A DNA stretch of 64,000 nucleotides, taken from contig JACONG010000016.1 of assembly GCA_014323865.1 (NCBI GenBank), positions 544,523 through 608,522 of the forward strand, read 5' to 3'. This stretch comes from Rhodospirillales bacterium. GTDB lineage: Bacteria > Pseudomonadota > Alphaproteobacteria > SP197. A program made the translations under genes and the position numbers. Below, in pieces: positions 4,962-59,872 of the stretch (the first letter of the stretch is position 1; every line of letters begins with the position of its first letter). The notes below the pieces were generated by a model. It was not told where the DNA came from. It saw only the letters and a program-made list of their open reading frames with translations, and did no database searches.

Positions 4962-6157
4962 GGTTGCGTTCGGCACCCAGGGTCTTCGTGACCTGCGCGG
5001 TGGTCACGGGCCTGATCGCACTCGCGCCGATGGCGACCGATACGGCGATTCCGGCGCTGCCGGCGATCGGTCGCGCGCTGCAGGCCTCGCCCGACCAGGT
5101 CGTGCTGATCATCAGCCTGTTCTATTTCGGTATGGCGCTGATGCAGCTGGTCTACGGGCCCCTGTCGGATCATTACGGTCGCCGTACCGTTTTGGTGATT
5201 TCGCTGGTGATCTACCTTGCTGCCACGGCGGGAATCGTGCTCGCAACCTCGATCGAGATGCTGCTCGCCCTGCGGGTGCTGCAGGCGGGCGGCGCCTGTG
5301 CCGGCACCGTGCTGGGACGCGCCATCGTGCGCGACATGTTCGAGCGCAACGAGGCCGGGCGCGTGCTGGGCTACTGCATGACCGCCATGACGATCGTGCC
5401 GGGCATCAGCCCAATCATCGGCGGCGAACTGCTCGTCGCTTTCGGCTGGCGCTCGGTCTTCGGCCTCACACTCGTGATCGGCGCCATCATCGCGTTCTTC
5501 ACCTGGCGCATCCTGCCGGAGACTCTACCGCCCGCCCGGCGCCAGCCGGCCAACTTGGACGCGATCGTTCGCGCCTTCGCCCAGATGGCGCGCCACCGCG
5601 AGTACCTCGGCTTCGTTCTGGCGGCATGCGGGAGCTCGGTCGCACTCTTCGCCTACCTCTCAGGGGCGGGCTACACCTATGTCGATGTCCTCGGCCTCGA
5701 GGAGAACCTGGTCGGGTGGATGCTCCTGCTTGCCGTCGGCGGTTATCTCGTTGGCGGTTTCTCCGGCAGCGGATTGCAACGGCGCTTCGGTCTGGAGCGG
5801 ATCGTGCTGGCGGGTCTTGTCCTCAACATCCTCGGCGGCGCGCTGATGGCAATCGGGCTGGTGACGGGCTCGGCTTCGATCTGGTTCGTCGCGCTGCCCG
5901 GGATCGTCGTCTTCGCCGGCAACGGTGCCGCCCTGCCCCAGGCCACCGCAGGCGCCTTGGGGCCGTTCCCCCATGTCGCGGGGACGGCATCGTCGCTGGT
6001 GGGGTTCTGCCAGATGCTGACCGGTGCCGCGGCGTCGGCCCTTGTTGGTACCTTCTACGACGGCAGCCCAGCCTCGATGGTTATCGCCATCACGCTAGGA
6101 CCGCTGGTCGGTTTGGTGCTCTACGGCTGGCTCATCAGGCCGTGGCAGTTCCGCTGA
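4958..6157 (+). CDS. MFS transporter, Bcr/CflA-like drug-resistance family
   Basis: ATG overlaps the cobB TGA (ATGA). The N-terminus MATDTAIPALPAIGRAL…GPLSDHYGRRTV matches the Bcr/CflA signature, and the protein has 12 predicted TM segments. Confidence 0.8.
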   Translation: MRLRSAPRVFVTCAVVTGLIALAPMATDTAIPALPAIGRALQASPDQVVLIISLFYFGMALMQLVYGPLSDHYGRRTVLVISLVIYLAATAGIVLATSIEMLLALRVLQAGGACAGTVLGRAIVRDMFERNEAGRVLGYCMTAMTIVPGISPIIGGELLVAFGWRSVFGLTLVIGAIIAFFTWRILPETLPPARRQPANLDAIVRAFAQMARHREYLGFVLAACGSSVALFAYLSGAGYTYVDVLGLEENLVGWMLLLAVGGYLVGGFSGSGLQRRFGLERIVLAGLVLNILGGALMAIGLVTGSASIWFVALPGIVVFAGNGAALPQATAGALGPFPHVAGTASSLVGFCQMLTGAAASALVGTFYDGSPASMVIAITLGPLVGLVLYGWLIRPWQFR

Positions 6158-18561: not shown

Positions 18562-20221
18562 GTGCGTCCGGCCACGCTGAATCTGTTGCAGACCGCGCGC
18601 AATCTGGCGTGGCTTCTTGCGATCGCGCGAACGCTGGTGCGCTATAACGTCTCCTCCCGCTCCAACTCGCAGGCGTCGCACCCCCGGTGATGTGGGCCGC
18701 CAAGATGGTGTCGTCGCACAGTGCCGAAGGGCGTCCGGGACAACGTCTGGCTCGTGCTCTTCAGGAGCTCGGCCACAGTTTCGTGAAGTTCGTGAAGGTA
18801 GACCAGTTGCTTTCGGTGCGGCCCGATCTTGTCGGCCAGGAGATCGTTGCCGATCTCCAGACCCTGCAGGATGGCCTGACACCGTTCCCGGCCGAGGAGG
18901 CTCGGGCGACCATTGAACGCGAGCTGGAACGGCCGCTCGACGAGCTGTTCGAGAGCTTCGACAGCACGCCGGTTGCTACCGCCTCGACCGCACAGGTCCA
19001 CCGCGCGGTGACCTCGGACGGCCGCACGGTGGCGGTCAAGGTGCTACAGCCGCGCATCGCCGAGATCCTCGTTTGCTTACCAGCGCCCGGAGTTGCGAGA
19101 AAGGTGTCTGAGATGCTCCGGCAAGTCCTGTAGTGTCTCGATAGAGGGCCACATGAGAAGTATAACATCACGGCCGTTGCAAGCGCGACGACGACACCAA
19201 CCGCACGACAAAGCACCTCGCTGTCGTCGGTTCGCGGTGCCCAAACCAAGATGCATAACGCTACGCCGAGTGCCCGCCATAAACGGCGAGTATGCCAAAC
19301 AGTGCACCTAGAACATTGATTGCTGAGACCAACATTTTAGTTACTCCCTAGTTGTTCGGATAAGAGGGCTGCCACCAATGGTGCAATCCCAAACCCCGAT
19401 AGTTTCCGATGGAACATCAACTGGAGACATCACGGCGGCGAACAAGGTGGTCGCGAGCGAAGCGACATGGGCCTCGCACACTGGCTCGCTGACGTTATGG
19501 AGCACGCCCGGCCCGGCCTCAAGAGGCTCAAGCCGGTTCAGGTGGTCGAGACGCTGCGGAAGTGAGGCGACGTCGAACTCGACTTCAGGCCCGGTGTCGC
19601 TCACAGAGAACATGGCCGACGCTCCCGGCTTCCGCGTGCCCGAGATCGACTGGCAGCTCACCGGCGAACATGTGCTGAACCTGGAGTGGGTCAAAGGCAT
19701 CCCCGTCGATGAGCGCGAGTCGCTGCAGGCTAGCTGCAGGCTATGTGCCCCCCGGGACCGCAGCCGCGAGCTCTTCACCCAAGCATGCCGCTCGATCGGT
19801 GAGCCGATCCTAGGCCGGCCGCTCAACAAGATCTCGATCGCCCGACTTCTGGCCCAGCTTCTGCTCTTGCAGAAGACCATGCGGATCAATGAGGGCATCG
19901 GCCGTGCGCTGGCGTTCGCTCTCAAAATGTGGCGCTATCCCAGCCGCTGATCGAGAACTGTGCCGTGCGCGATCTCTCGCCGCCGGCATGGGCCTACGAT
20001 GCGGCACAGTCGGCGCGGCGACGCTGCGCCGCCTGCCGGAGCTGGCCCAGAAGGTCGAGGACATCACTGACGAGACCTCGGCCTCGGGGTTTCGTCTGCA
20101 CACCGACACGGTCGACGACCTGGCGCGCCGCCTTGCGGAAATCGGCAGCCGGGCGACCACCGCGCTCTGGGCTGCGGCATGGCTTGCCCTTCTGGTCGCA
20201 GCCATCGCACTCATCGTCTGA
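18562..20221 (+). pseudogene. ubiB: ubiB (AarF/ABC1 kinase-like ubiquinone biosynthesis protein) disrupted by frameshifts and an internal insertion
   Basis: UbiB-like segments fall in different frames: 18562 (LLQTARNLAWLLAIARTLVRY), 18687 (…FVKFVKVDQLLSVRPDLVG…AVKVLQPRI), 19478 (LADVMEHARPGLKRLKPVQVVETLRK), 19606 (FRVPEIDWQLTGEHVLNLEWVKGIPV), and 19889 (C-terminal TM region). The total span of about 1.66 kb equals the normal ubiB length plus an insert of roughly 350 bp. Confidence 0.7.
19261..19335 (-). CDS. Candidate 24-aa hydrophobic peptide ORF (MLVSAINVLGALFGILAVYGGHSA) inside the low-GC insert in ubiB
   Basis: ATG preceded by AGGGAG at the proper spacing; a single predicted TM helix; located in a segment of about 48% GC. 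Confidence 0.2.
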   Translation of the reverse strand: MLVSAINVLGALFGILAVYGGHSA

Positions 20222-29775: not shown

Positions 29776-30964
29776 TTGACACGGAAAAACCCCTTTGCCG
29801 CCGTCGATGATTTGGTACGCCAAGGCATGGAGGCGCCGGTTGCCGATGCCAGGGGCCTGCCCAATGAAGCCTTCACCGATCCCGTGTTCCTGGAGCTCGA
29901 ACGCAAGCACCTGTTTGCACGAAGCTGGGTCTTCGCCTGCCCGCAGAGCGACGTTCCGAATCCGGGCGACGTGAAATGTCTCGAGGTTGCGGGGCGTCAT
30001 CTCTTCATGACCCGCGACCGCAAGGGTGCCGTCAGGATTTTCTTCAACGTCTGCTCCCATCGCGGCGCCAGGCTTGTGATCGAGGACCAGACGAAAGCCA
30101 CCGTCCTGACCTGCCCTACCACGATTGGTCCTTCGGGCTGGACGGCACGCTGCGCGGACGGCCGCACTATCACGCCCCGCTGGAGCATGACACCGTCGGC
30201 AGCAAAGCTGATCGCGACTGCCTCTTCGAGGTGCGCCCGGCAATCTGGCACGGCTGGGTCTTCGTCAACATCGACGGTCAGGCGCAACCGTTCGAGGACT
30301 ACATGGCGCCCGCCATGAAGGCCTATGTGGACTGGGACCTTGGCGCGCTCAAGCTGGTGCACTACCAGCCCTTCGACTTCCACGCGGCTTGGAAGCTCGT
30401 GATCGAGACCTTCTGCGACACCTACCACGTCTTTATGGTGGCATCCCGATCTTCATGCCGCGCAGACGCCGGCCGACTGTTTCACGATGCGGCCCGATAG
30501 TGCGCACATGTTCAACCACATCGTCATCGGCGCCGAAGGCGGTGGTCTGACGCCGGTTGAGGAACAACTTCTACCGGATATCCCGGGCGTCTCCGCCGAT
30601 CAGGAGTCGCTCTCACCCTTCTGCAACATCTTCCCCAACGTCACGATGGCGCTGTTCCGTTCGGCCGTGACCTTACTTCCAATACGAGCCGGTCGCCGTC
30701 GACAAGACCATCATGCGTGTCTGGTTCTACGTTGCGCCCGAAACCGCCGAGGACGAGGCCTACGCGCTGGGCCGCGAGGAGCTCTATGCCAATTGGGTAC
30801 AGCTCAACGCCGACGGTGCCGGGATCTGCCACCGTCTGCAGGAAGGCCCCAGCTGTGACGCCTACGACGGCGGCAGCTTCGTTCCCTACTGGGACGAGGG
30901 CAGGCTGCACTTTCACCGCCAGATCGCGGATGCGCTGCGCGGGGAAGGGTTGTTTGTGCGGTGA
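29776..30964 (+). pseudogene. Rieske non-heme iron oxygenase alpha subunit, at least 3 frameshifts
   Basis: The first Rieske motif CSHRG (CxH) is in frame A and the second, CPYHDW, only in frame C. The frame change is in a C-run (tgccctacc). The catalytic-domain pieces (ETFCDTYHVFMV…, then YFQYEPVAVDKTIMRVWFYVAPE…GEGLFVR) are in two further frames. Confidence 0.65.
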
Positions 30965-31082: not shown

Positions 31083-32072
31083 TCAGAGAAGCGTATCGAT
31101 CACCCGATCCGGCGGTTTGTGCCCGTCGGCGTAGGTCTTGATGTTGATGATGACCTTTTCGCCCATGTCGAGGCGGCCCTCGATCGTGGCCGAGCCCATG
31201 TGGGGCAGGAGCACGACGTTCTGAAGCGCCAGCAGCTTGGGGTTCACGGCGGGCTCATGTTCGAAGACGTCGAGGCCGGCGCCGGCGATCTCGTTGTCCC
31301 GGAGCATCCGTGTCAGCGCCGCCTCGTCGATGACCTCGCCGCGTGAGGTGTTCACGACCATCGCGTTTTTCTTCAGAAGCTTCAGGCGGCGGGCCGAGAG
31401 CAGGTGGAAGGTGGCGGGCGTGTGCGGGCAGTTGACCGAGATGATGTCCATGCGGGCGAGCATCTGGTCGAGGCTCTCCCAGTAGGTCGCCTCAAGCTCC
31501 TGCTCGGTGTCGTCGGGCAGCTGCCGGCGGTTGTGGTAGTGGATCGAGAGGCCGAAGCCACGCGCCCGGCGCGCCACGGCTGAGCCGATTCGGCCCATAC
31601 CGATTATGCCGAGCCGTTTGCCCCAGAGACGATGGCCCAGCATGTGGGTCGGGCTCCAGCCCGACCAGTCGCCTGAACGGATCAGGCGCTCGCCTTGGCT
31701 GACCCGGCGGATCACGTCGAGGATCAGCGCCATGGTCATGTCGGCGGTGTCCTCGGTCAGGACGCCCGGCGTGTTGGTCACGGTGATGCCGCGCTCGCGG
31801 GCCGCGGCGAGATCGATATGGTCGACGCCGGTACCGAAGTTCGCGACCAGTCGGAGATTCTCGCCAGCCTGGGCCAGAATACCCTTATCGATGCGGTCGG
31901 TCAGGGTGGGGACCAGGACGTCAGCTGTCTTGACTGCTTCGACCAGTTCGTCCCGACCCATCGGGTGATCATCGTCGTTGAGCCGGGTATCGAATAGCTC
32001 CATCATTCGTGTTTCAATGACGTCGGGCAGCTTTCTGGTTACAATGACAGTGGATTTTTTGGCTTGGGCCAT
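31083..32072 (-). CDS. D-isomer-specific 2-hydroxyacid dehydrogenase (glyoxylate/hydroxypyruvate reductase-like)
   Basis: The NAD-binding motif GIIGMGRIGSAVARRA and the catalytic R/E/H context (…NTSRGEVIDEAAL…LDVFEHEP). Start chosen at MAQAKKSTVIV. Confidence 0.85.
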   Translation of the reverse strand: MAQAKKSTVIVTRKLPDVIETRMMELFDTRLNDDDHPMGRDELVEAVKTADVLVPTLTDRIDKGILAQAGENLRLVANFGTGVDHIDLAAARERGITVTNTPGVLTEDTADMTMALILDVIRRVSQGERLIRSGDWSGWSPTHMLGHRLWGKRLGIIGMGRIGSAVARRARGFGLSIHYHNRRQLPDDTEQELEATYWESLDQMLARMDIISVNCPHTPATFHLLSARRLKLLKKNAMVVNTSRGEVIDEAALTRMLRDNEIAGAGLDVFEHEPAVNPKLLALQNVVLLPHMGSATIEGRLDMGEKVIINIKTYADGHKPPDRVIDTLL

Positions 32073-32175
32073 GCGTTTGCTGATTGCCTTGCTGCGAGGG
32101 AGGCCCGGGAGCTTCGGGCGCAGGGTCTTTAGCAAACACGATCACACGAAACAACGCAACGCGGCCTCCTTCCGG

Positions 32176-32649
32176 ATGCATGGCACGATTGCGCTTTTTC
32201 TCGTCGTGCTGATCGGGTGCGAAGCGGCCCAGGACCCGCTGCCTCTGCCCCGATTCGTGTCGCTCAAGGAAGACAAGGTCTTCATGCGCGCGGGCCCCGG
32301 CACGACCTACCCGATCAACTGGGTCTTCGTGCGCGAAGGCATGCCGATCGAGATCCTCCGTGAATATGAGGAATGGCGTTACGTGCGCGACCACGATGGC
32401 GTCGAAGGCTGGATGCACCGGATTATGCTGTCAGGCTCGCGCTCGGTGATCGTTGCGAGCCAGGTGGTGGCGACTGCCTACGACACGCCGAGGCGCGACG
32501 GCGCGCCGGTGTTCCGCGCGGACCCCGGGGTCCAGGGGGGGCTGATCTCGTGTGACGGCTCATGGTGCCGGATCGAGATCGGCGACGTGAAGGGCTGGAT
32601 GCTGATGGACGATCTCTGGGGTGTCTACCCGGAGGACGGGCAGGGCTGA
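32176..32649 (+). CDS. Secreted SH3b-domain protein
   Basis: A signal peptide (MHGTIALFLVVLIGCEA) followed by two SH3-like repeats (…VSLKEDKVFMRAGPGTTYPINWVFVREGMPIEIL… and …VFRADPGVQGGLISCDGSWCRIE…). Confidence 0.7.
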   Translation: MHGTIALFLVVLIGCEAAQDPLPLPRFVSLKEDKVFMRAGPGTTYPINWVFVREGMPIEILREYEEWRYVRDHDGVEGWMHRIMLSGSRSVIVASQVVATAYDTPRRDGAPVFRADPGVQGGLISCDGSWCRIEIGDVKGWMLMDDLWGVYPEDGQG

Positions 32650-32960
32650 TGGGGTTCACTCCCGGGGAGCGTCGGCTTGTCCCCGATCATGTCGGACGCC
32701 TTCTCGGCCATCATGATGACGGGAGTGTTCAGATTGGCCGAGACGATCGAGGGGATGATCGACGCGTCAACCACGCGCAGGCCTGTGACGCCATGAACAC
32801 GGTAGGCCGGATCAATCACCGCATCGGGACTCTGACACATGCGGCAGGCACCCGCGGGGTGATAGCCGCTCTCGGCATATCGCTGGACCCAAGCGTCGAC
32901 CTCGGCGTCCGTCCTGACATCGGGGCCCGGGGTCAGCTCGCGCCCGCGAACTGGTGTATG
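32625..32960 (-). pseudogene. C-terminal about 110-aa fragment of a GMC-family oxidoreductase (choline dehydrogenase-like)
   Basis: …SGYHPAGACRMCQSPDAVIDPAYRVHGVTGLRVVDASIIPSIVSANLNTPVIMMAEKASDMI is the GMC C-terminal signature. The coding sequence stops abruptly at the repeat-rich junction (about 32960). Confidence 0.65.
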
Positions 32961-32970
32961 TGGGGGGCGG

Positions 32971-33148
32971 GAAGTCTTTGGGAATCGTGACTATGCGTGA
33001 TGAGGCGTGACTATGCGTGATGGATCAAGGGGTTAGGGGTGGATTCGGGGTTGCTGAAAAGTCTTTCAGAATCGTCCGTTGAAACGGCCTTGCAGGGTCG
33101 TTTTCCGGGCGTTTTCTAGGGTCTGGAACGCCGGGATTTTCCGGGCGT
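32971..33148. repeat. Repeat-rich junction: tandem 19–20-bp repeat (CGTGACTATGCGTGATG ×2), direct repeats of TTTTCCGGGCGTTTT, and an imperfect repeat of GAAGTCTTTGGGAATCGT
   Basis: Seen directly at 32986–33022, 33092–33108/33130–33144, and 32971–32991/33056–33070. Confidence 0.5.
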
Positions 33149-33221
33149 TTTGGGGGGTCGCGAGATGGCGTCGAAACAGAGGCCGTCGGGGTGCGCCGGG
33201 CGGCGGTCGCTCGGAGCGGGT

Positions 33222-33734
33222 TCAGGCGAGGCAGAACCTGACGATCGGGCCTTCGACGGTGCGTCGTCCGGTTCCGTCTGGTCCGCTTTCGTCTGTCAGG
33301 GTGTATTCGGCGTTGGGGGGCGGGTGGCCGATCTTGTCGCCGTTCTTGTCGATCAGATGCGCGGGCATCCGCGCCTTGTGTCCGTCGGGGAAGGTGAACA
33401 GGGGCGAGAGGTGTTCGAGTTCGGTCTCGCCTCCGTCGAAGACCGGGGGCAGCTCGATGGCGATGCCCTGGTAGATCTCGCTCGGTGTATGGACGCCAGC
33501 CCATATGAAACCCAGCAGCCAGATGAGGTCGCCTGGGCTGTGGGCCGGGTCCTGGAGCCAGACCTGGATCTCGTCCTTGGCGAGCCATCCCGGCTCGCGT
33601 CCGTCGACCTGCTCGTTGAGCCATGGCACATCGCCGTGATCGCCGTCGAAGGTTCCGGCGACATCGTCCCACAGGATGGTCCGCATGGCGCGCCCGAACC
33701 GCCGGTCGGGCAGCATGATGGTGTGGATAGCCAT
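33222..33734 (-). CDS. Hypothetical protein (170 aa), unrecognised family
   Basis: Open frame with protein-like composition (…VPWLNEQVDGREPGWLAKDEIQVWLQDPAHSPGDLIWLLGFIWAGVHTPSEIYQGIAIELPPVFDGGETELEHL…). The opposite strand is an R-rich shadow. Confidence 0.4.
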   Translation of the reverse strand: MAIHTIMLPDRRFGRAMRTILWDDVAGTFDGDHGDVPWLNEQVDGREPGWLAKDEIQVWLQDPAHSPGDLIWLLGFIWAGVHTPSEIYQGIAIELPPVFDGGETELEHLSPLFTFPDGHKARMPAHLIDKNGDKIGHPPPNAEYTLTDESGPDGTGRRTVEGPIVRFCLA

Positions 33735-33848
33735 GTCAGGGATTGTAGTGGAACAGGACGCCGAAGACCAGATCCATTAGTTCGGGATCGTCGCGGGCGA
33801 GCGAGGCGATGTCGAGAATTTCTGTGGTGCCATCGGGCCGCGTCCTGG

Positions 33849-34764
33849 TTATCTGGTGGAATGTGATCTGGAACGCGCGCGTGACGACCTCAAGGGCGGG
33901 GCGGTCGCCATATTGCGGTGCACCGCCTGTATCAGCGGCAGGCGTTCGGGCACGTTCTCGAAACCGAGCTGGGCATCGCAGAGCGCGGCTGCAAGCGACG
34001 GCGCGACCATCAGGTTGGCCTCGACCGCCGCACGCTCCTCACCCTCGCTCCAGGAGACCGCATGCGCCTGCGAGTCCTGGGTCTTGCTGTCCTCGACATC
34101 GAACAGCCGGGTCGCGAGGCCTGCCCACGCACAGGCCCAGGCGACCCTGGTGCCTATGACGCCGTCGCCGACGATCCCGATCGGTCGGGCATGGTCGAAC
34201 GCCGGCAGGTCTGTCGATACAGGCTCAGTCCTCGAACTGGCTTTCGCGCCAGCGGATGGCAGCACTGAGGCCCTTCTCCGAACGGACCTTCTCGAACTGC
34301 TTGTACTGTTCGGGTTCGGCCGTATCAGGCCCTCGAGCGAGATCGTGGTGGCGCGGCGGGCATAACGCATGGTCTCTTCCTCGAGCTTGTCGTCGGGGAA
34401 GGCCTTGTTGACCGTGCCCATCGCCAGCGCCTCTTCGGCGGTGATGAGATCACCGGTGTAGAGCAGTTCACGGGTGCGCTTCAGGCCGATGATCCAGGGC
34501 ATGATCATCCCCGGCGGTGCAGTCGAGAAGCGGCTCTCCGGCTCGCCGAACATCGCGCTCTCGCCGGCGTAGGTGATGCAGCACATCATCGCGAGTTCGC
34601 AGGAACCGGTTATACTCGTTGCCCCACTCGTACTTCAGGTCGTCGCCCGCGCCGAAGTGGTCGCCGTCGTGCGTCAGGATGATGACCGAGACGTCGTCAT
34701 TCTCGTCGAGCTCGCACAGCACGCCGGAAAGTTCGGCCATAAATGGCGGGTTCATGGAATTCAT
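33849..34764 (-). pseudogene. Remnants of a FadB-like enoyl-CoA hydratase / 3-hydroxyacyl-CoA dehydrogenase gene
   Basis: ECH N-terminus (34764→: …VIILTHDGDHFGAGDDLK) and ECH C-terminus in a second frame (ITYAGESAMFGEPESRF…LLYTGDLITAEEALAMGTVNKAFP), with roughly 60 aa missing between them. HADH N-terminus (IGIVGDGVIGTRVAWACAWAGL…ENVPERLPLIQAV) ends at a stop at 33849. Confidence 0.55.
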
Positions 34765-34849
34765 CTTGGCGGCCCGGTTGATCGTGACCGTGGCGATAGC
34801 TGGTCGTCGGTCTGGATGAAGCCGCTGTCGATCAAACCCGATTGCGAGA

Positions 34850-35401
34850 TCAGCGTGATGTCGCCGGGGTCGATGCTGTTGCGTGTGCCGACCAAGGCGA
34901 TCTGGGTCTTTTTTCGTCGCGGTTGACGAAGCCCGAGCCGTTGCCTCCGCAGACCTGGAGTCCGGCCGCGCGCACCTTGGTCTGCAAGCGATCGAGCAGC
35001 AGTGGGTCGGTGTCGCCCTTGAGGTAGCAGGAGGCGAAGATCGTCACCGCCTTCATTCTGTTGGCGATCGCGTCGTCGAGCACGCCCTCAAGGCGCGCAT
35101 TCGCGACGTTCAGCATGGCGTACTCGACCGGCGTGCCGATCGCTGCGATGTCCGGGGAACACAGCCGGTCGTCGATCGCGTCGTCACGCGGGTTCACGAG
35201 GTGAACATCACCGTCGTAGCCGATGTCGCCGACACCGCGACAGGACTTCCAACCGAAGCTGTACTCCCTCGGCGACGCGCCGACGACCGCCACCGAGGTC
35301 AGGTTCAAAAGAATCCTGAGACGATGCTGACCACGGGAAAAGCTGTCTGACAAATGACTGGCGGAACTGTAGAGCGGATTGTACCGTCGGCAATCCCCCA
35401 T
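34850..35401 (-). pseudogene. N-terminal CoA-binding-domain fragment of an ADP-forming acyl-CoA synthetase
   Basis: LLNLTSVAVVGASPREYSFGWKSCRGV…VHLVNPRDDAIDD…AVTIFASCYLKGDTD…AGLQVCGGNGSGFVNRDEK, then the coding sequence decays and stops after about 180 aa; the expected full length is over 450 aa. Confidence 0.5.
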
Positions 35402-35543: not shown

Positions 35544-36455
35544 ATGACTGCCCGCCCCCCTGTTCTCGATAGCACCGCCTGGCTTCTTCTGATCGCGCTC
35601 TCGCTCGTGTGGGGCGCGTCGTTCTTCTTCGCCGAGGTGGCGCTTGCCGACCTGCCGCCGGTGACCATCGTTGCGGCCCGCATGGTGATCGGCGCGGCGG
35701 GGCTTTGGGTCATCGTCGCTATCGTTCGGGTCGTCCTTCCCCGGGATCGACGGACATGGTGTGACCTCCTGGTAATGGGGTTGCTGAACAACGCGCTGCC
35801 GTTCTGCCTGATCGTGTCGAGCCAGGTCTGGGTCACCGGCGGGTTCGCCAGTGTGCTGAATGCCACCACGCCCGTGTTCGGCGTCATCGCCGCCCACGTC
35901 TTCACCACTGATGAACGCCTCACGCCCAATCGGCTGGCGGGTGTCGTGCTGGGCTTCCTCGGCGTCGTCGTGCTGATGGGCCCGTCGATCCTTGGGAACG
36001 TCTCGGACCAGATCATCGGCGGCCTGCTGCTGATCGCTGCGGCGATCTCCTACGCGACGGCCGGTCTCTGGGGGCGGCGTCTGCGTCATCTGCCGCCGGT
36101 CAGCGCGGCAACCTGCCAGGCCAGTTGCTCGATGGTGATGCTGGTGCCGTTGGCGCTTGTCGTCGATGCGCCATGGGCGCTTCCCAACCCGTCGATCGAG
36201 GTCTGGCTCTCGCTCCTGGGTATCGGCCTGCTGTCGACCTCGCTCGCCTATCTGATGTTCTTCGCTATCCTCAAACGGGCGGGCGGCAGCAACGTCATGC
36301 TCGTGACGCTGATGGTGCCGCCCAGCGCCACCCTGCTCGGGGTGCTCGTGCTGGCCGAACCGGTCAGCACCGGGCAGCTCATCGGCATGGTCCTGATCTG
36401 TCTCGGCCTCGTCGCCATCGACGGACGCCTGCTGCGCCGGTTCCGAACGGCATGA
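35544..36455 (+). CDS. DMT-superfamily (EamA-like) transporter
   Basis: 10 predicted TM segments with the two-EamA-repeat architecture; 303 aa. Confidence 0.85.
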   Translation: MTARPPVLDSTAWLLLIALSLVWGASFFFAEVALADLPPVTIVAARMVIGAAGLWVIVAIVRVVLPRDRRTWCDLLVMGLLNNALPFCLIVSSQVWVTGGFASVLNATTPVFGVIAAHVFTTDERLTPNRLAGVVLGFLGVVVLMGPSILGNVSDQIIGGLLLIAAAISYATAGLWGRRLRHLPPVSAATCQASCSMVMLVPLALVVDAPWALPNPSIEVWLSLLGIGLLSTSLAYLMFFAILKRAGGSNVMLVTLMVPPSATLLGVLVLAEPVSTGQLIGMVLICLGLVAIDGRLLRRFRTA

Positions 36456-36877
36456 AAACGACCGAGCGCGTCTTCTTCGGCCAGTGGGTTGCCTGGACCG
36501 GCTTCCTCATGGCGCTCTTCGCTCTGAGGGTTCGGATTCTACCGGTTCGACGTCTACCTGGGCTGGCGAAACCGAATGTCGCGCTGATCATGAGGCTCTG
36601 CGGTCTCGTCATCGACCGGATCGTCTTTGCCATGGGCTTGGGCTGCCAGGTCACGCTGTCGGGCCTGATCGCCCAGGTCGAGTTCTCACGCGCCGACTTC
36701 GCGCGCGCAATTGCGCCGATCGTCGCGATCACCCGGTTCACCTGTGCCTTCGGCCCGGGCGTCGTCGGTGTCATCGCCGATGTCGCGCACGGCTACGGCA
36801 CAGCGTTGGCGCTCACCACGGCTGCGATGCTGGTTGCATCGGCGGTCCTAATCGTCGTTGGCCGGCCCCGTGCCTGA
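36452..36877 (+). CDS. Small membrane protein (141 aa), resembles the C-terminal 3–4 helices of an MFS transporter
   Basis: Its ATG overlaps the upstream TGA (ATGA coupling). Hydrophobic helices: …GLVIDRIVFAMGLGCQVTLSGLIAQ… and AFGPGVVGVIADVAHGYGTALALTTAAMLVASAVLIVVG. Confidence 0.45.
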   Translation: MKTTERVFFGQWVAWTGFLMALFALRVRILPVRRLPGLAKPNVALIMRLCGLVIDRIVFAMGLGCQVTLSGLIAQVEFSRADFARAIAPIVAITRFTCAFGPGVVGVIADVAHGYGTALALTTAAMLVASAVLIVVGRPRA

Positions 36878-57884: not shown

Positions 57885-58352
57885 TCAGAGCCAGCGCCGC
57901 ACCTGCCGGCAGAACGCCCGGTAGTCCTCGCCGAAGAGACCTTCGAGATACCGTTCCTCGCGCCGGATGACGCCCCAGTGCAGGGTCGCCACCAGCACCT
58001 GCCAGACGGCCAAGAGCCAGAGTGTGTCGAGGGCGAAGCCGAGTCCCAGAAACAGCGTCACCATGGCGAGGTACATCGGATTGCGCGTGTGTTTGTAGGG
58101 GCCTTCGGTGACCAGTGCGGTTGAGGGATGCCAGGGTTCGACGGCCGTCTTCTTGTGGCCGAAGCAGCGGACCGCCCAGAGTGCGAGCCCGATGGCGGGG
58201 ACGATGAACACGGCACCGAGGACGTACTGCACGGTGTCGTCCAGGAAGGGTGCCGGCCAGATGCGGTCGAGCTCGAGGCCCGCCAGCAGGAGAAGCAGCA
58301 CGATGATCGGCGGCGGCGCGATGACGCTGGCTGTCTTGCGTTCCTCGCTCAT
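57885..58352 (-). CDS. Isoprenylcysteine carboxyl methyltransferase (ICMT/PEMT-like) family membrane protein
   Basis: …LVTEGPYKHTRNPMYLAMV… is the ICMT signature; 4 predicted TM segments. ATGA overlap with the GNAT gene. Confidence 0.75.
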   Translation of the reverse strand: MSEERKTASVIAPPPIIVLLLLLAGLELDRIWPAPFLDDTVQYVLGAVFIVPAIGLALWAVRCFGHKKTAVEPWHPSTALVTEGPYKHTRNPMYLAMVTLFLGLGFALDTLWLLAVWQVLVATLHWGVIRREERYLEGLFGEDYRAFCRQVRRWL

Positions 58353-58843
58353 GCCCCTTGTTTCACCTTCTCCATGAACGCGACCGGAAGGTCGACACCG
58401 GCCACCGTCGGCATGCTGCCACGTTCGTAGGTCCTGTAGCCCAGATGCGCATAGAACGCTTCGGCATTCGCATTGGAACGGACGATGAAGGCGACATAGC
58501 CCTGTCCGCGCGTGTCCGCTTCGGCCGCTTCGACCATACGCCGCCCAAGACCCGTGCCCGCCAAGGCTGGATCGACAAACACCTTGCGGATGCGTGTAAC
58601 ATCCGGGCGGTCCTCGACCGCGCACCAGCCGGCCGTGGCCATGATGGTGCCACCATCGGCCACCGCGAGCTGCAGGTGATTGCGCATCAGCACATCAGCG
58701 TAGCCGTCACTCTCGATCTCGGCGACGTGCGCCGCGATCTGTGCAGCTGTGTTGTGGGTCCCGGCGAGAGCCCGGAACGCGGTGGCGTGCAGGCGGCGCA
58801 CCGCCAGGATGTCCTCGGGTGCGATCGGGCGGAGGAGCTTCAT
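58349..58843 (-). CDS. GNAT-family N-acetyltransferase
   Basis: The acetyl-CoA binding motif …RIRKVFVDPALAGTGLGRRMVEAAE…. Confidence 0.8.
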   Translation of the reverse strand: MKLLRPIAPEDILAVRRLHATAFRALAGTHNTAAQIAAHVAEIESDGYADVLMRNHLQLAVADGGTIMATAGWCAVEDRPDVTRIRKVFVDPALAGTGLGRRMVEAAEADTRGQGYVAFIVRSNANAEAFYAHLGYRTYERGSMPTVAGVDLPVAFMEKVKQGA

Positions 58844-58945
58844 TGAATCTGAACTCGCGTTTGGATCCTCGCTTCGGTTCGACGGACAACTACGACTCAG
58901 CACGCTTTAAGGTTGTGCAATTCACTGGCAGTCTGACTCCAGGAG

Positions 58946-59872
58946 GTGCCGAACTTGACCAGACTGGTCCTGTTGCACAAACAAGACTCGATCTACGACG
59001 ATCTGCCAGATCAACGTTATCACTTTCCGAACCGCTCCTATCTTTCGGCGTTGCGGGAAGCAGTTGGTGACTGGATCGTCTACCACGAGCCGGGCGCGGG
59101 GGGAGGTCGGCGGTCCTACTTCGCGATCGCGAGGGTGGTCAGCGTGGAGCCGGACCCCGAACGTGACGACCACTCATATGCAACCGTGGCCGACTATCTG
59201 GATTTCTCGGACCTGGTCCCTCTTCATGACCCGAATGGCGACCACTATGAGAGTGACCTCCAGCAGCCGGATGGCTCAACAAACCGGGGACGGATCCAGC
59301 GTGCAGTTCGCCGGATCAGTGATGCCGACTACTTGTCAATTCGCGCCGCTGGGCTTCGTTCGGCCCACAAGTACCTCGACGACTTGCGAAGCGAAGAGGT
59401 TGCAGATGGTTTGGCCGAAGATCAGGCACCATATGATCGTCCAATGGTTTCCAGCACAGGATCCAGACCTTTCCGTGACGTCGCGTTTCGTCATGCTGTG
59501 CTCAGAGCCTATGACTCACATTGCGCGTTTACCGACCTCAAGGTCGTGAATGGCCGCCAGCGCGTTGAAGTTGACGCGGCGCACATTCGACCGGTCGGTG
59601 ATAACCATCGGGGCAGCGACAGCATTCGAAATGGCCTGGCGCTGTCAAAGACAGTTCACTGGCTGTTCGATCGCGGGATCATCGCTGTTAGCGACGACTT
59701 CGAGATTCTTGAGTCGCCAGGACGGCTGCCAGACAAACTCAAGCCACTGTTCCGAGATGACGGACTTATCAGAATGCCAGAACGAAGATCGGAATGGCCC
59801 AGTCCGGTCAACCTTCGCTATCACCGTGACATGTTTGAGGACTGCTACGGACGTTTCTCCAAGCTGAACTAA
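58946..59872 (+). CDS. HNH endonuclease (HNH_2-type C-terminal domain) with an unrecognised N-terminal domain of about 160 aa
   Basis: C-terminus: …FRHAVLRAYDSHCAFTDLKV…VDAAHIRPVGDNHRGSDSIRNGLALSKTVHWLFDRGII (the C-A-x-T…AAHI-P…NGL…H-x-x-FD pattern). GC content is visibly lower than the flanks. Confidence 0.8.
   Translation: MPNLTRLVLLHKQDSIYDDLPDQRYHFPNRSYLSALREAVGDWIVYHEPGAGGGRRSYFAIARVVSVEPDPERDDHSYATVADYLDFSDLVPLHDPNGDHYESDLQQPDGSTNRGRIQRAVRRISDADYLSIRAAGLRSAHKYLDDLRSEEVADGLAEDQAPYDRPMVSSTGSRPFRDVAFRHAVLRAYDSHCAFTDLKVVNGRQRVEVDAAHIRPVGDNHRGSDSIRNGLALSKTVHWLFDRGIIAVSDDFEILESPGRLPDKLKPLFRDDGLIRMPERRSEWPSPVNLRYHRDMFEDCYGRFSKLN

Follow-up and report, generated by a model that had tools for sequence, protein, structure and literature searches.

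Remnants of a probable acyl-CoA synthetase, enoyl-CoA hydratase and 3-hydroxyacyl-CoA dehydrogenase operon beside a phage-derived cassette in a Rhodospirillales genome

The locus described here is a run of gene fragments at positions 33849-35401 of a 64,000-nucleotide (nt) stretch of DNA, hereafter the window, from a high-GC Rhodospirillales metagenome-assembled genome (MAG). Its closest described counterparts include the NDP(ADP)-forming acyl-CoA synthetases (ACS), the enoyl-CoA hydratases (ECH) and the 3-hydroxyacyl-CoA dehydrogenases (HCDH), the latter two being meant here in their stand-alone form. For ACS, which belongs to the ACD superfamily, the syntenic orthologues found in relatives carry three domains in one chain of 700 amino acids (aa); the remnant in the window matches the first ~180 residues of that chain, but retains the first domain alone. 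The ECH remnant is 76-80% identical to crotonase-superfamily hydratases (Pfam ECH_1/ECH_2; NCBIfam PRK08290-like) and keeps their CELAMM and GEPE motifs, whereas it lacks aa 1-12, ~77-110 and 207-236 and is split over two reading frames. As in FadB and FadJ, a hydratase is followed by a 3-hydroxyacyl-CoA dehydrogenase in the same domain order; however, FadB and FadJ are single polypeptides of ~715 aa, and the genes of the window are separate, divided by a stop codon and a short spacer.

Specific enzyme names from NCBIfam were considered for all three genes and rejected, as every score falls far below the curated cut-offs. The ACS orthologue reaches 266 bits with the models for acetate-, 3-hydroxypropionate- and 4-hydroxybutyrate-CoA ligases, against cut-offs of 1200-1300; the intact ECH orthologue stays at 171 bits against 280, and the intact HCDH homologues at 176-181 bits against 312 and, with the FadB/FadJ models, at 57-79 bits against 869-968. 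Since no intact homologue reaches any curated cut-off, they are, as far as their sequences tell, generic crotonase, 3HCDH and NDP-forming acyl-CoA-ligase family proteins of acyl-CoA metabolism and not FadB/FadJ. The label "fatty-acid oxidation", which a first-pass annotation of this stretch had used, is thus unsupported, and the comparison with FadB/FadJ that it had suggested fails both on the separateness of the genes and on these scores; its comparison with AcdA/PauA is likewise unsupported.

A further counterpart is the formation of unitary pseudogenes through deletional decay in host-restricted or recently niche-restricted bacteria. The window resembles such cases in the intact syntenic genes of its relatives, in deletions at microhomology, in a homopolymer frameshift, in lost start codons and in the clustering of its pseudogenes, codon-biased open reading frames (ORFs) covering, on a rough estimate, only ~70% of the window; nothing essential differs. 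We put at roughly 0.9 the probability that the segment represents a co-directional ACS-ECH-HCDH operon, now wrecked and non-functional. It is a genuine but ordinary instance of deletional pseudogenisation, of a kind already known, and the cassette that adjoins it, composed of the tail of a Mu F-like gene and a 170-aa gene (orf170), is the only mildly novel thread.

Three gene remnants on the minus strand

The window has a GC content of ~65%, and its ORFs are mostly of normal length with strong codon bias. The remnants lie within ~2.9 kb between an SH3-domain gene (31978-32649, plus strand) and an EamA transporter gene (35544-36455, plus strand), an interval in which orf170 is the only long, well-biased ORF. 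Fragments were detected by three-frame translation of the minus strand combined with Pfam scans, followed by tblastn with intact orthologues, and deletion junctions were read from DNA alignments to intact genes (a global one for the ECH of L081; others for the ACS and ECH of L088 and for L091), where L-numbers such as L081, L087 or L091 label loci and contigs of relatives. The fragments at 33849-35401 are real, all on the minus strand at these coordinates and with scores far above chance, and they belong to three gene remnants that together span 33,894-35,338. The features are listed below in the direction of transcription.

34803-35338, minus strand: ACS remnant (Pfam CoA_binding_2; tblastn with the ACS of L088; DNA alignment)
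34850-35308, minus strand: 152-aa ORF, MBC6441061.1, "CoA-binding protein" (GenBank, IMG)
34909-34914, minus strand: 1-nt frameshift in an A6 run of ACS (tblastn segments join at 34913 in different frames; codons read)
34797-34803, minus strand: ACS-ECH fusion junction (DNA alignment to the ACS and ECH of L088; ECH homology from 34797)
34606-34797, minus strand: ECH segment A, aa 13-76 of 268 (tblastn, 72-80% identity; blastn, 75% to L081)
34604-34613, minus strand: junction of ECH deletion 1 (alignment to the ECH of L081; frame change between tblastn segments)
33849-34589, minus strand: chimeric 246-aa ORF, MBC6441060.1, "hypothetical protein", GDA49_11775 (100% identity to the GenBank entry)
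34326-34613, minus strand: ECH segment B, aa 111-206 (tblastn, 80-82% identity; blastn, 82% nt identity)
34231-34326, minus strand: ECH segment C, aa 237-268 (tblastn, blastn and DNA alignment; returns to the frame of segment A)
34225-34227, minus strand: native ECH stop codon TGA, retained (DNA alignment; codons read)
33894-34219, minus strand: HCDH remnant (tblastn with the homologue P0036; DNA alignment to L091; Pfam 3HCDH_N)

The ACS remnant corresponds to about aa 3-182 of an orthologue of 695 aa (~26% of its length), a part that comprises CoA_binding_2 and the beginning of the next domain. The Pfam match to CoA_binding_2 (E=3.6e-11, at 34850-35401) covers profile positions 2-111 of 116. 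With the ACS of L088 as query, tblastn aligns aa 3-141 to 35329-34913 at 65% identity and aa 141-180 to 34913-34794 in a different frame, with a combined E-value of 5e-54. The start codon is lost, the ancestral ATG GTG now reading CGT GGT. Beyond the shift in the A6 run, homology continues to ~aa 182 (…ISQSGLIDSGFIQTDDQL) at ~34803, where it is joined straight to ~aa 13 of ECH (IATVTINR…, 34797). A deletion of ~1.6 kb has thus taken ACS aa 183-695 (74% of the gene, at its 3' side) together with the intergenic spacer and the start of ECH. As regards the domains of an NDP-forming ACS, CoA_binding_2 and ~40 further residues are left, and Succ_CoA_lig and ATP-grasp_5 are gone.

ECH retains 72% of its length in three pieces over two frames (tblastn with intact orthologues, combined E=5e-79), and its best homologues are stand-alone proteins of 268-271 aa with up to 83% identity. 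The Pfam family ECH_1 is matched at profile positions 17-80 (E=3.3e-6, at 34468-34764) and 108-189 (E=7e-13, within the 246-aa ORF); of the ~250 positions of a complete crotonase fold, positions 81-107 and those after 189 are left unmatched. Deletion 1, of 110 nt (aa ~77-113, ~34-36 residues), is out of frame, has CGG/GG microhomology at its junction and removes the core beta-strand and helix ahead of the GSCELAMM motif. Segment B, whose frame differs from that of segment A, keeps the Glu positions of both CELAMM and GEPE, which we take to be the two catalytic Glu residues of crotonases. Deletion 2, of 91 nt (aa 207-236, 30 aa), is likewise out of frame, its junction lying at 34326 with CCT microhomology.

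The HCDH remnant corresponds to aa 3-108 of 298 (36%), at 34211-33894, and is 65% identical to P0036 (tblastn E=1e-42). Pfam 3HCDH_N is matched at profile positions 2-102 of 180 (E=2.6e-7) within the 246-aa ORF. Both possible start codons are gone, GTG ATG having become GTA TCG, and nothing is left of the other 190 aa (64%), among them the 3HCDH C-terminal domain. The best homologues are stand-alone proteins of 297-301 aa that carry both 3HCDH_N and 3HCDH and are 57-65% identical to the remnant.

The first-pass annotation had described these fragments as lying head to tail on the minus strand, none of them full-length, with an N-terminus of a 3-hydroxyacyl-CoA dehydrogenase among them. All of this is borne out (Pfam E-values from 3.3e-6 to 7e-13, tblastn E-values from 1e-42 to 5e-79; 3HCDH_N positions 2-102, aa 3-108), and tblastn recovers no full-length homologue from the window in any frame. 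Other parts of the description need amending. The fragment of an ACS CoA-binding domain is present, but the remnant is longer, running past the 1-nt frameshift to ~aa 182 and ending in the fusion to ECH. The N- and C-terminal parts of ECH, between which about 60 residues had been given as missing, are there as well; the loss consists of two gaps (~35 and 30 residues), and the surviving true C-terminus had been overlooked. Finally, the loss had been called a true deletion and not a frameshift: the deletions are real, but those of 110 nt and 91 nt shift the frame, and ACS has its 1-nt frameshift in addition.

Both annotated ORFs of the wreck are called coding sequences (CDS) by NCBI and JGI. The 246-aa ORF, whose GenBank entry MBC6441060.1 lies on a 905-kb contig, is composed of ECH segment B, segment C read out of frame, the HCDH N-terminus and an out-of-frame part of the prophage remnant described below, and the 152-aa ORF closes with an 18-residue out-of-frame tail. 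A FadB-like fusion of ECH and HCDH was considered for the former and rejected, as the native ECH stop is retained and the orthologues are separate genes of 268 and 298 aa; the apparent fusion is an artefact of the frame-shifting deletion. That the fragments nevertheless function, the 152-aa ORF as a stand-alone, YccU/YneT-type CoA-binding protein or the 246-aa chimera as a protein of a new kind, seems to us very improbable. Stand-alone CoA_binding_2 domain proteins exist, and with its nearly complete profile match this domain could in principle fold alone; the pieces are also free of in-frame stops, have high GC content at third codon positions (GC3) and figure as CDS in both records. However, the nearest homologues of the ACS piece are the N-termini of 693-701-aa synthetases with CoA_binding_2, Succ_CoA_lig and ATP-grasp_5 at the syntenic locus, not stand-alone proteins, and the 152-aa ORF lacks the ancestral start in addition to bearing its out-of-frame tail. 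As for the 246-aa ORF, it lacks the crotonase core, reads ~30 residues of ECH out of frame, has neither the rest of the NAD domain nor the 3HCDH C-terminal domain, and continues in the wrong frame into the phage remnant. We infer that both ORFs are by-products of new reading frames and not genes. MBC6441060.1 and MBC6441061.1 would then be pseudogene read-throughs, unfit to serve as family members or for the metabolic reconstruction of the MAG.

Read in their native frames, the remnants have a GC3 of 0.78-0.92 and zero in-frame stops. The ECH remnant is 76-80% identical to its orthologues, which are 80-89% identical among themselves, a deficit of 5-8 points; GlyDH (D-glycerate dehydrogenase) and EamA, both intact in the window, show no such deficit and are not accelerated. 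Over 189 codons, NG86 estimates of dN/dS for ECH are 0.18-0.21 in 4 of the 5 pairs that involve the window and 0.09 against L087, for which dS is saturated; intact ECH pairs of comparable dS give 0.09-0.14, and dS is near saturation throughout, so that these values are indicative only. Because in-frame stops are lacking, GC3 is still high and dN/dS is only modestly raised, the remnants look like young pseudogenes inactivated mainly by deletion. The sequences thus indicate an inactivation that is probably recent and proceeded mostly through deletion.

The ancestral locus in relatives

Relatives were located by scanning species-representative genomes with the neighbouring GlyDH gene and from the gene contexts of ECH homologues. 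In L087, L088/L089, L093, L094, L095 and L096, the order is (DUF1491 and MFS genes, minus strand) EamA (minus), ACS and ECH (both plus), SH3 (minus), GlyDH (plus) and a Rieske oxygenase gene (minus), with an ACS of 693-701 aa and an ECH of 268 aa. The minus strand of the window has matching flanks, EamA being 74%, SH3 43-50% and GlyDH 87-91% identical, and because of this match the ACS and ECH pieces can be placed at the orthologous position. The SH3/GlyDH pair itself is widely conserved in Rhodospirillales-like genomes. In L095 and L096, two tandem ECH paralogues lie between ACS and SH3 (L095 5647-7454), 79% identical over the compared segments. Two candidates for the ancestral ACS were discarded: the genes upstream of ECH in L081/L082 (ORFs of 165 aa and 268 aa, AAA_33-like) are unrelated to it, and L085 offers only a paralogous locus, syntenic orthologues existing elsewhere. 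The ACS paralogue of L085 (10001-12183) is itself split into overlapping ORFs of 196 and 535 aa.

For HCDH, the evidence comes from the metagenome contig L091, on which the end of an ACS gene, an ECH gene (268 aa) and an HCDH gene (298 aa, essentially P0036) follow each other, with the HCDH start ~10 nt past the ECH stop. From the native ECH stop to the first HCDH-homologous codon, there are 13 nt in the window and 15 nt in L091, and the two are collinear. This adjacency and the matching spacer support an ancestral ACS-ECH-HCDH operon. The reconstruction, for which the first-pass annotation had proposed tblastn searches of relatives, was made with intact orthologues and their gene contexts and points to ACS-ECH-HCDH between EamA and SH3/GlyDH. 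Intact orthologues of ACS and ECH occur at the syntenic position in the relatives named above, and an intact HCDH adjoins ECH in L091, which upholds the claim of bona fide pseudogenisation.

An alternative is that the pieces never formed one operon in this lineage and are a mosaic produced by rearrangement or horizontal transfer. In its favour, L081/L002 have ECH beside SH3 without ACS or HCDH, L087 and L088 have ACS-ECH and no HCDH, HCDH homologues are also found in different contexts (L084, L090), and a GMC oxidoreductase tail and the phage cassette further downstream in the window are clearly of different origins. Against it, ACS and ECH are neighbours between the same flanking genes in at least five relatives, and L091 has ECH next to HCDH with a nearly identical spacer. 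We therefore regard a mosaic as improbable; for HCDH, whose adjacency to ECH is known from one short contig, this alternative is weakened but keeps some probability.

Several observations weigh against the operon interpretation or parts of it. L081/L002 is the closest genome by GlyDH among those with ECH beside SH3, and it is the one that has neither ACS nor HCDH there; more generally, gene content up- and downstream of ECH varies among relatives. The intact ECH-HCDH adjacency is seen on one 3.7-kb contig only, and the HCDH of this contig is 65% identical to the remnant. Adjacency is also what ties the insertion of the prophage to the truncation of HCDH. Furthermore, the genome is a metagenome assembly, of which the NCBI and JGI records may stem from the same reads, and sequencing error might account for the one-base shift in the A6 run.

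The last two points belong to another reading of the wreck, in which the contig would be misassembled, collapsed or chimeric and the genes of the organism intact. The metagenomic origin, the homopolymer nature of one lesion and the end of a JGI contig inside orf170, a possible sign of a repeat difficult for the assembler, are compatible with such an artefact. By contrast, most of the lesions are clean deletions (91 nt, 110 nt and ~1.6 kb) with continuous, well-aligned flanks, the start codons were lost through substitution, the JGI metagenome contig Ga0189853_1000018 (L083) is identical in sequence to the window so that two assembly records agree, neighbouring genes carry independent lesions of a like kind, and dN/dS is raised as real pseudogenes would show, with the reservations made above about dS and the 189 codons. 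We accordingly give an assembly or sequencing artefact very little credence.

Under the operon interpretation, the genes were destroyed by at least four deletions, namely the ~1.6-kb deletion between ACS and ECH, the two of 110 nt and 91 nt within ECH, each at 2-4 nt of microhomology, and the loss of everything after HCDH aa 108; the slip of 1 nt in the A6 run and the lost start codons of ACS and HCDH are further lesions. The ancestral 3.8 kb has lost some 60% of its length. In a repeat search over 32.4-35.7 kb, the deletion flanks showed no long repeats, whether direct or inverted; what turned up was microhomology of 2-4 nt where the deletions join and, in the tail of the cassette, two small tandem repeats.

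A phage-derived cassette beside the HCDH remnant

Mu F proteins with uncharacterised C-terminal extensions have been described from proteobacterial temperate phages, and muf genes from prophage remnants (Jamet et al. 2017, PMC5576092). In the window, HCDH homology ends exactly where the 3' end of a Mu F-like gene begins, and a prophage remnant of ~950 nt adjoins HCDH directly. It consists of three parts.

33739-33906, minus strand: 3' end of a Mu F-like head-protein gene, 54 codons without a start (72% aa identity to a small ORF of L171; nt alignment)
33222-33734, minus strand: orf170, an intact gene of 170 aa, GDA49_11770 (full-length homologues of 167-169 aa)
32958-33221, minus strand: non-coding cassette tail of ~260 nt (right end common to the copies in L171 and L172)

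The 54 Mu F-like codons lie at 33900-33739. The small ORF of L171 to which they correspond aligns to the C-termini of two larger proteins, Portal_Mu+Phage_Mu_F (1061 aa) in L173 and Phage_Mu_F (526 aa) in L175, both of which carry a HEYVHH (HExxH-like) motif just upstream of the aligned part. In L173, a paralogue of orf170 (5001-5504) has the Portal/Mu F gene on one side and a tail-completion/Neck1 gene on the other, with Gp27-like and terminase genes upstream, a context that is a Mu-like head module. The copy in the window is read as a prophage remnant because its short ORF is a Mu F C-terminus and because of the head-module context of L173. A Mu F protein beside portal and terminase genes is seen for the paralogous copies in L173 and L175 only, not in the window itself. 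The cassette resembles the described remnants (PMC5576092) in that its first part is the 3' terminus of a gene related to full-length Portal_Mu/Phage_Mu_F genes, which lie beside terminase genes and whose products have a C-terminal extension with the HEYVHH motif; it differs from them in keeping just 54 Mu F-like codons and in that no toxin or immunity activity is known for the extension or for orf170.

The start of orf170 follows the stop of the Mu F-like remnant by 1 nt. Its protein has the conserved motifs MAIHTIMLPD, VWDDEAGT and TLPPVFDG, and it has no match in Pfam, NCBIfam, PHROGs, the INPHARED phage collection or the PDB; its AlphaFold2 model reaches a pLDDT of only 56. The Mu F-like C-terminal extension likewise has no match in Pfam, PHROGs or the PDB. 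The tail contains two pairs of tandem repeats, one of 23 nt with a spacing of 36 (33101-33159) and one of 17 nt with a spacing of 20 (32986-33022), and similar motifs recur in L171 at 1949-2052.

As a whole, 33906-32958 on the minus strand is 74-79% identical at the nt level to two copies of a unit of ~1.07 kb (L171 5685-6760 and L172 5686-6760), which belong to a related genome of 3.75 Mb and are 92% identical to each other; at least three paralogues of orf170 (L171, L172, L173) are found in that one genome. The unit in L172 separates the N-domain from the catalytic domain of a pepA-like Peptidase_M17 gene. Short TOBE_2 and BPD_transp_1 fragments at L172 1378-3241 suggest that decay is under way in that genome too. 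The JGI contig L083, 99.6 kb long, breaks off inside orf170 at window position ~33630; such a break is typical of a multi-copy repeat in short-read assembly and hints at further copies of the cassette in the genome.

These observations allow two accounts of how the cassette came to lie next to HCDH. In the one that we prefer, integration of a Mu-like prophage would have caused, or preceded, the 3' truncation of HCDH, and later deletions may have trimmed prophage and host DNA on both sides, leaving ~950 nt of prophage and the tail of a GMC oxidoreductase gene. In the other, the unit of ~1 kb would be a discrete module that has been relocated repeatedly, for example an orphan cassette of a MuF-type toxin tip with its immunity gene that spreads by recombination, and its arrival would have seeded the deletion of the rest of HCDH and of the genes up to the GMC oxidoreductase. 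Such a module finds backing in the presence of at least two copies with identical ends in the related genome, in the split Peptidase_M17 gene and in the right end shared with the window; a search of the cassette for terminal inverted repeats and target-site duplications gave nothing convincing. We consider a mobile module of this kind unlikely.

Decay of the neighbouring genes

The first-pass annotation had seen genuine genome decay in this region and had confined the wreck to 33849-35401. The decay is supported and is broader than claimed, comprising an MFS gene, a Rieske oxygenase gene, the GMC oxidoreductase tail and the prophage remnant; the fragments do lie within the interval, but the decayed stretch continues past both of its sides.

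32625-32938, minus strand: C-terminal remnant of a GMC oxidoreductase gene, ~100 of ~550 aa (GMC_oxred_C positions 51-139 of 139, E=4e-23)
36452-36871, plus strand: MFS transporter pseudogene beside EamA (aa 1-41 and 321-402 of the 410-aa orthologue of L088)
29800-30961, plus strand: Rieske/Ring_hydroxyl_A oxygenase pseudogene beyond GlyDH (L088 has an intact gene of 402 aa there)

The GMC tail begins ~20 nt past the right end of the cassette and is closest to choline dehydrogenase (NCBIfam model positions 438-542 of 563). It is convergent with the SH3 gene, whose end its stop codon overlaps, and ~80% of the gene is missing at the 5' side. The MFS pseudogene has an internal deletion of ~280 aa. 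In the Rieske pseudogene, four overlapping pieces are spread over several frames, which requires at least three frameshifts, and the last piece corresponds to a 98-aa ORF (30671-30964). Altogether, six gene wrecks lie within ~7 kb, and every one belongs to a block whose genes are intact in relatives. They show a ~65%-GC Rhodospirillales genome that is losing accessory catabolic genes, mainly by deletion and apparently recently. If the MAG is a sponge-associated member of the Rhodospirillales, this bears on whether small genomes there reflect reduction, a question left open by PMC7313196.

A search of plasmid collections with 28-42 kb of the window returned only distant matches (at most 77%) to the GlyDH gene and no annotated close relative, and Rfam and tRNA scans of the whole window were empty, so that no RNA feature accounts for the region. 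Elsewhere in the window, an ORF at 19327-19947 (plus strand) has a short match to ABC1 kinases (profile positions 120-163 of 244, E=2.6e-8) and sits in a 1.2-kb stretch without a codon-biased ORF; it may be another gene remnant. Between 58 and 60 kb, the GC content drops to 61% against ~65%, and an ORF for a GNAT acetyltransferase (58352-58906, minus strand) lies next to one for an HNH_2 endonuclease (58937-59869, plus strand); 58352-59869 may be a small acquired island.

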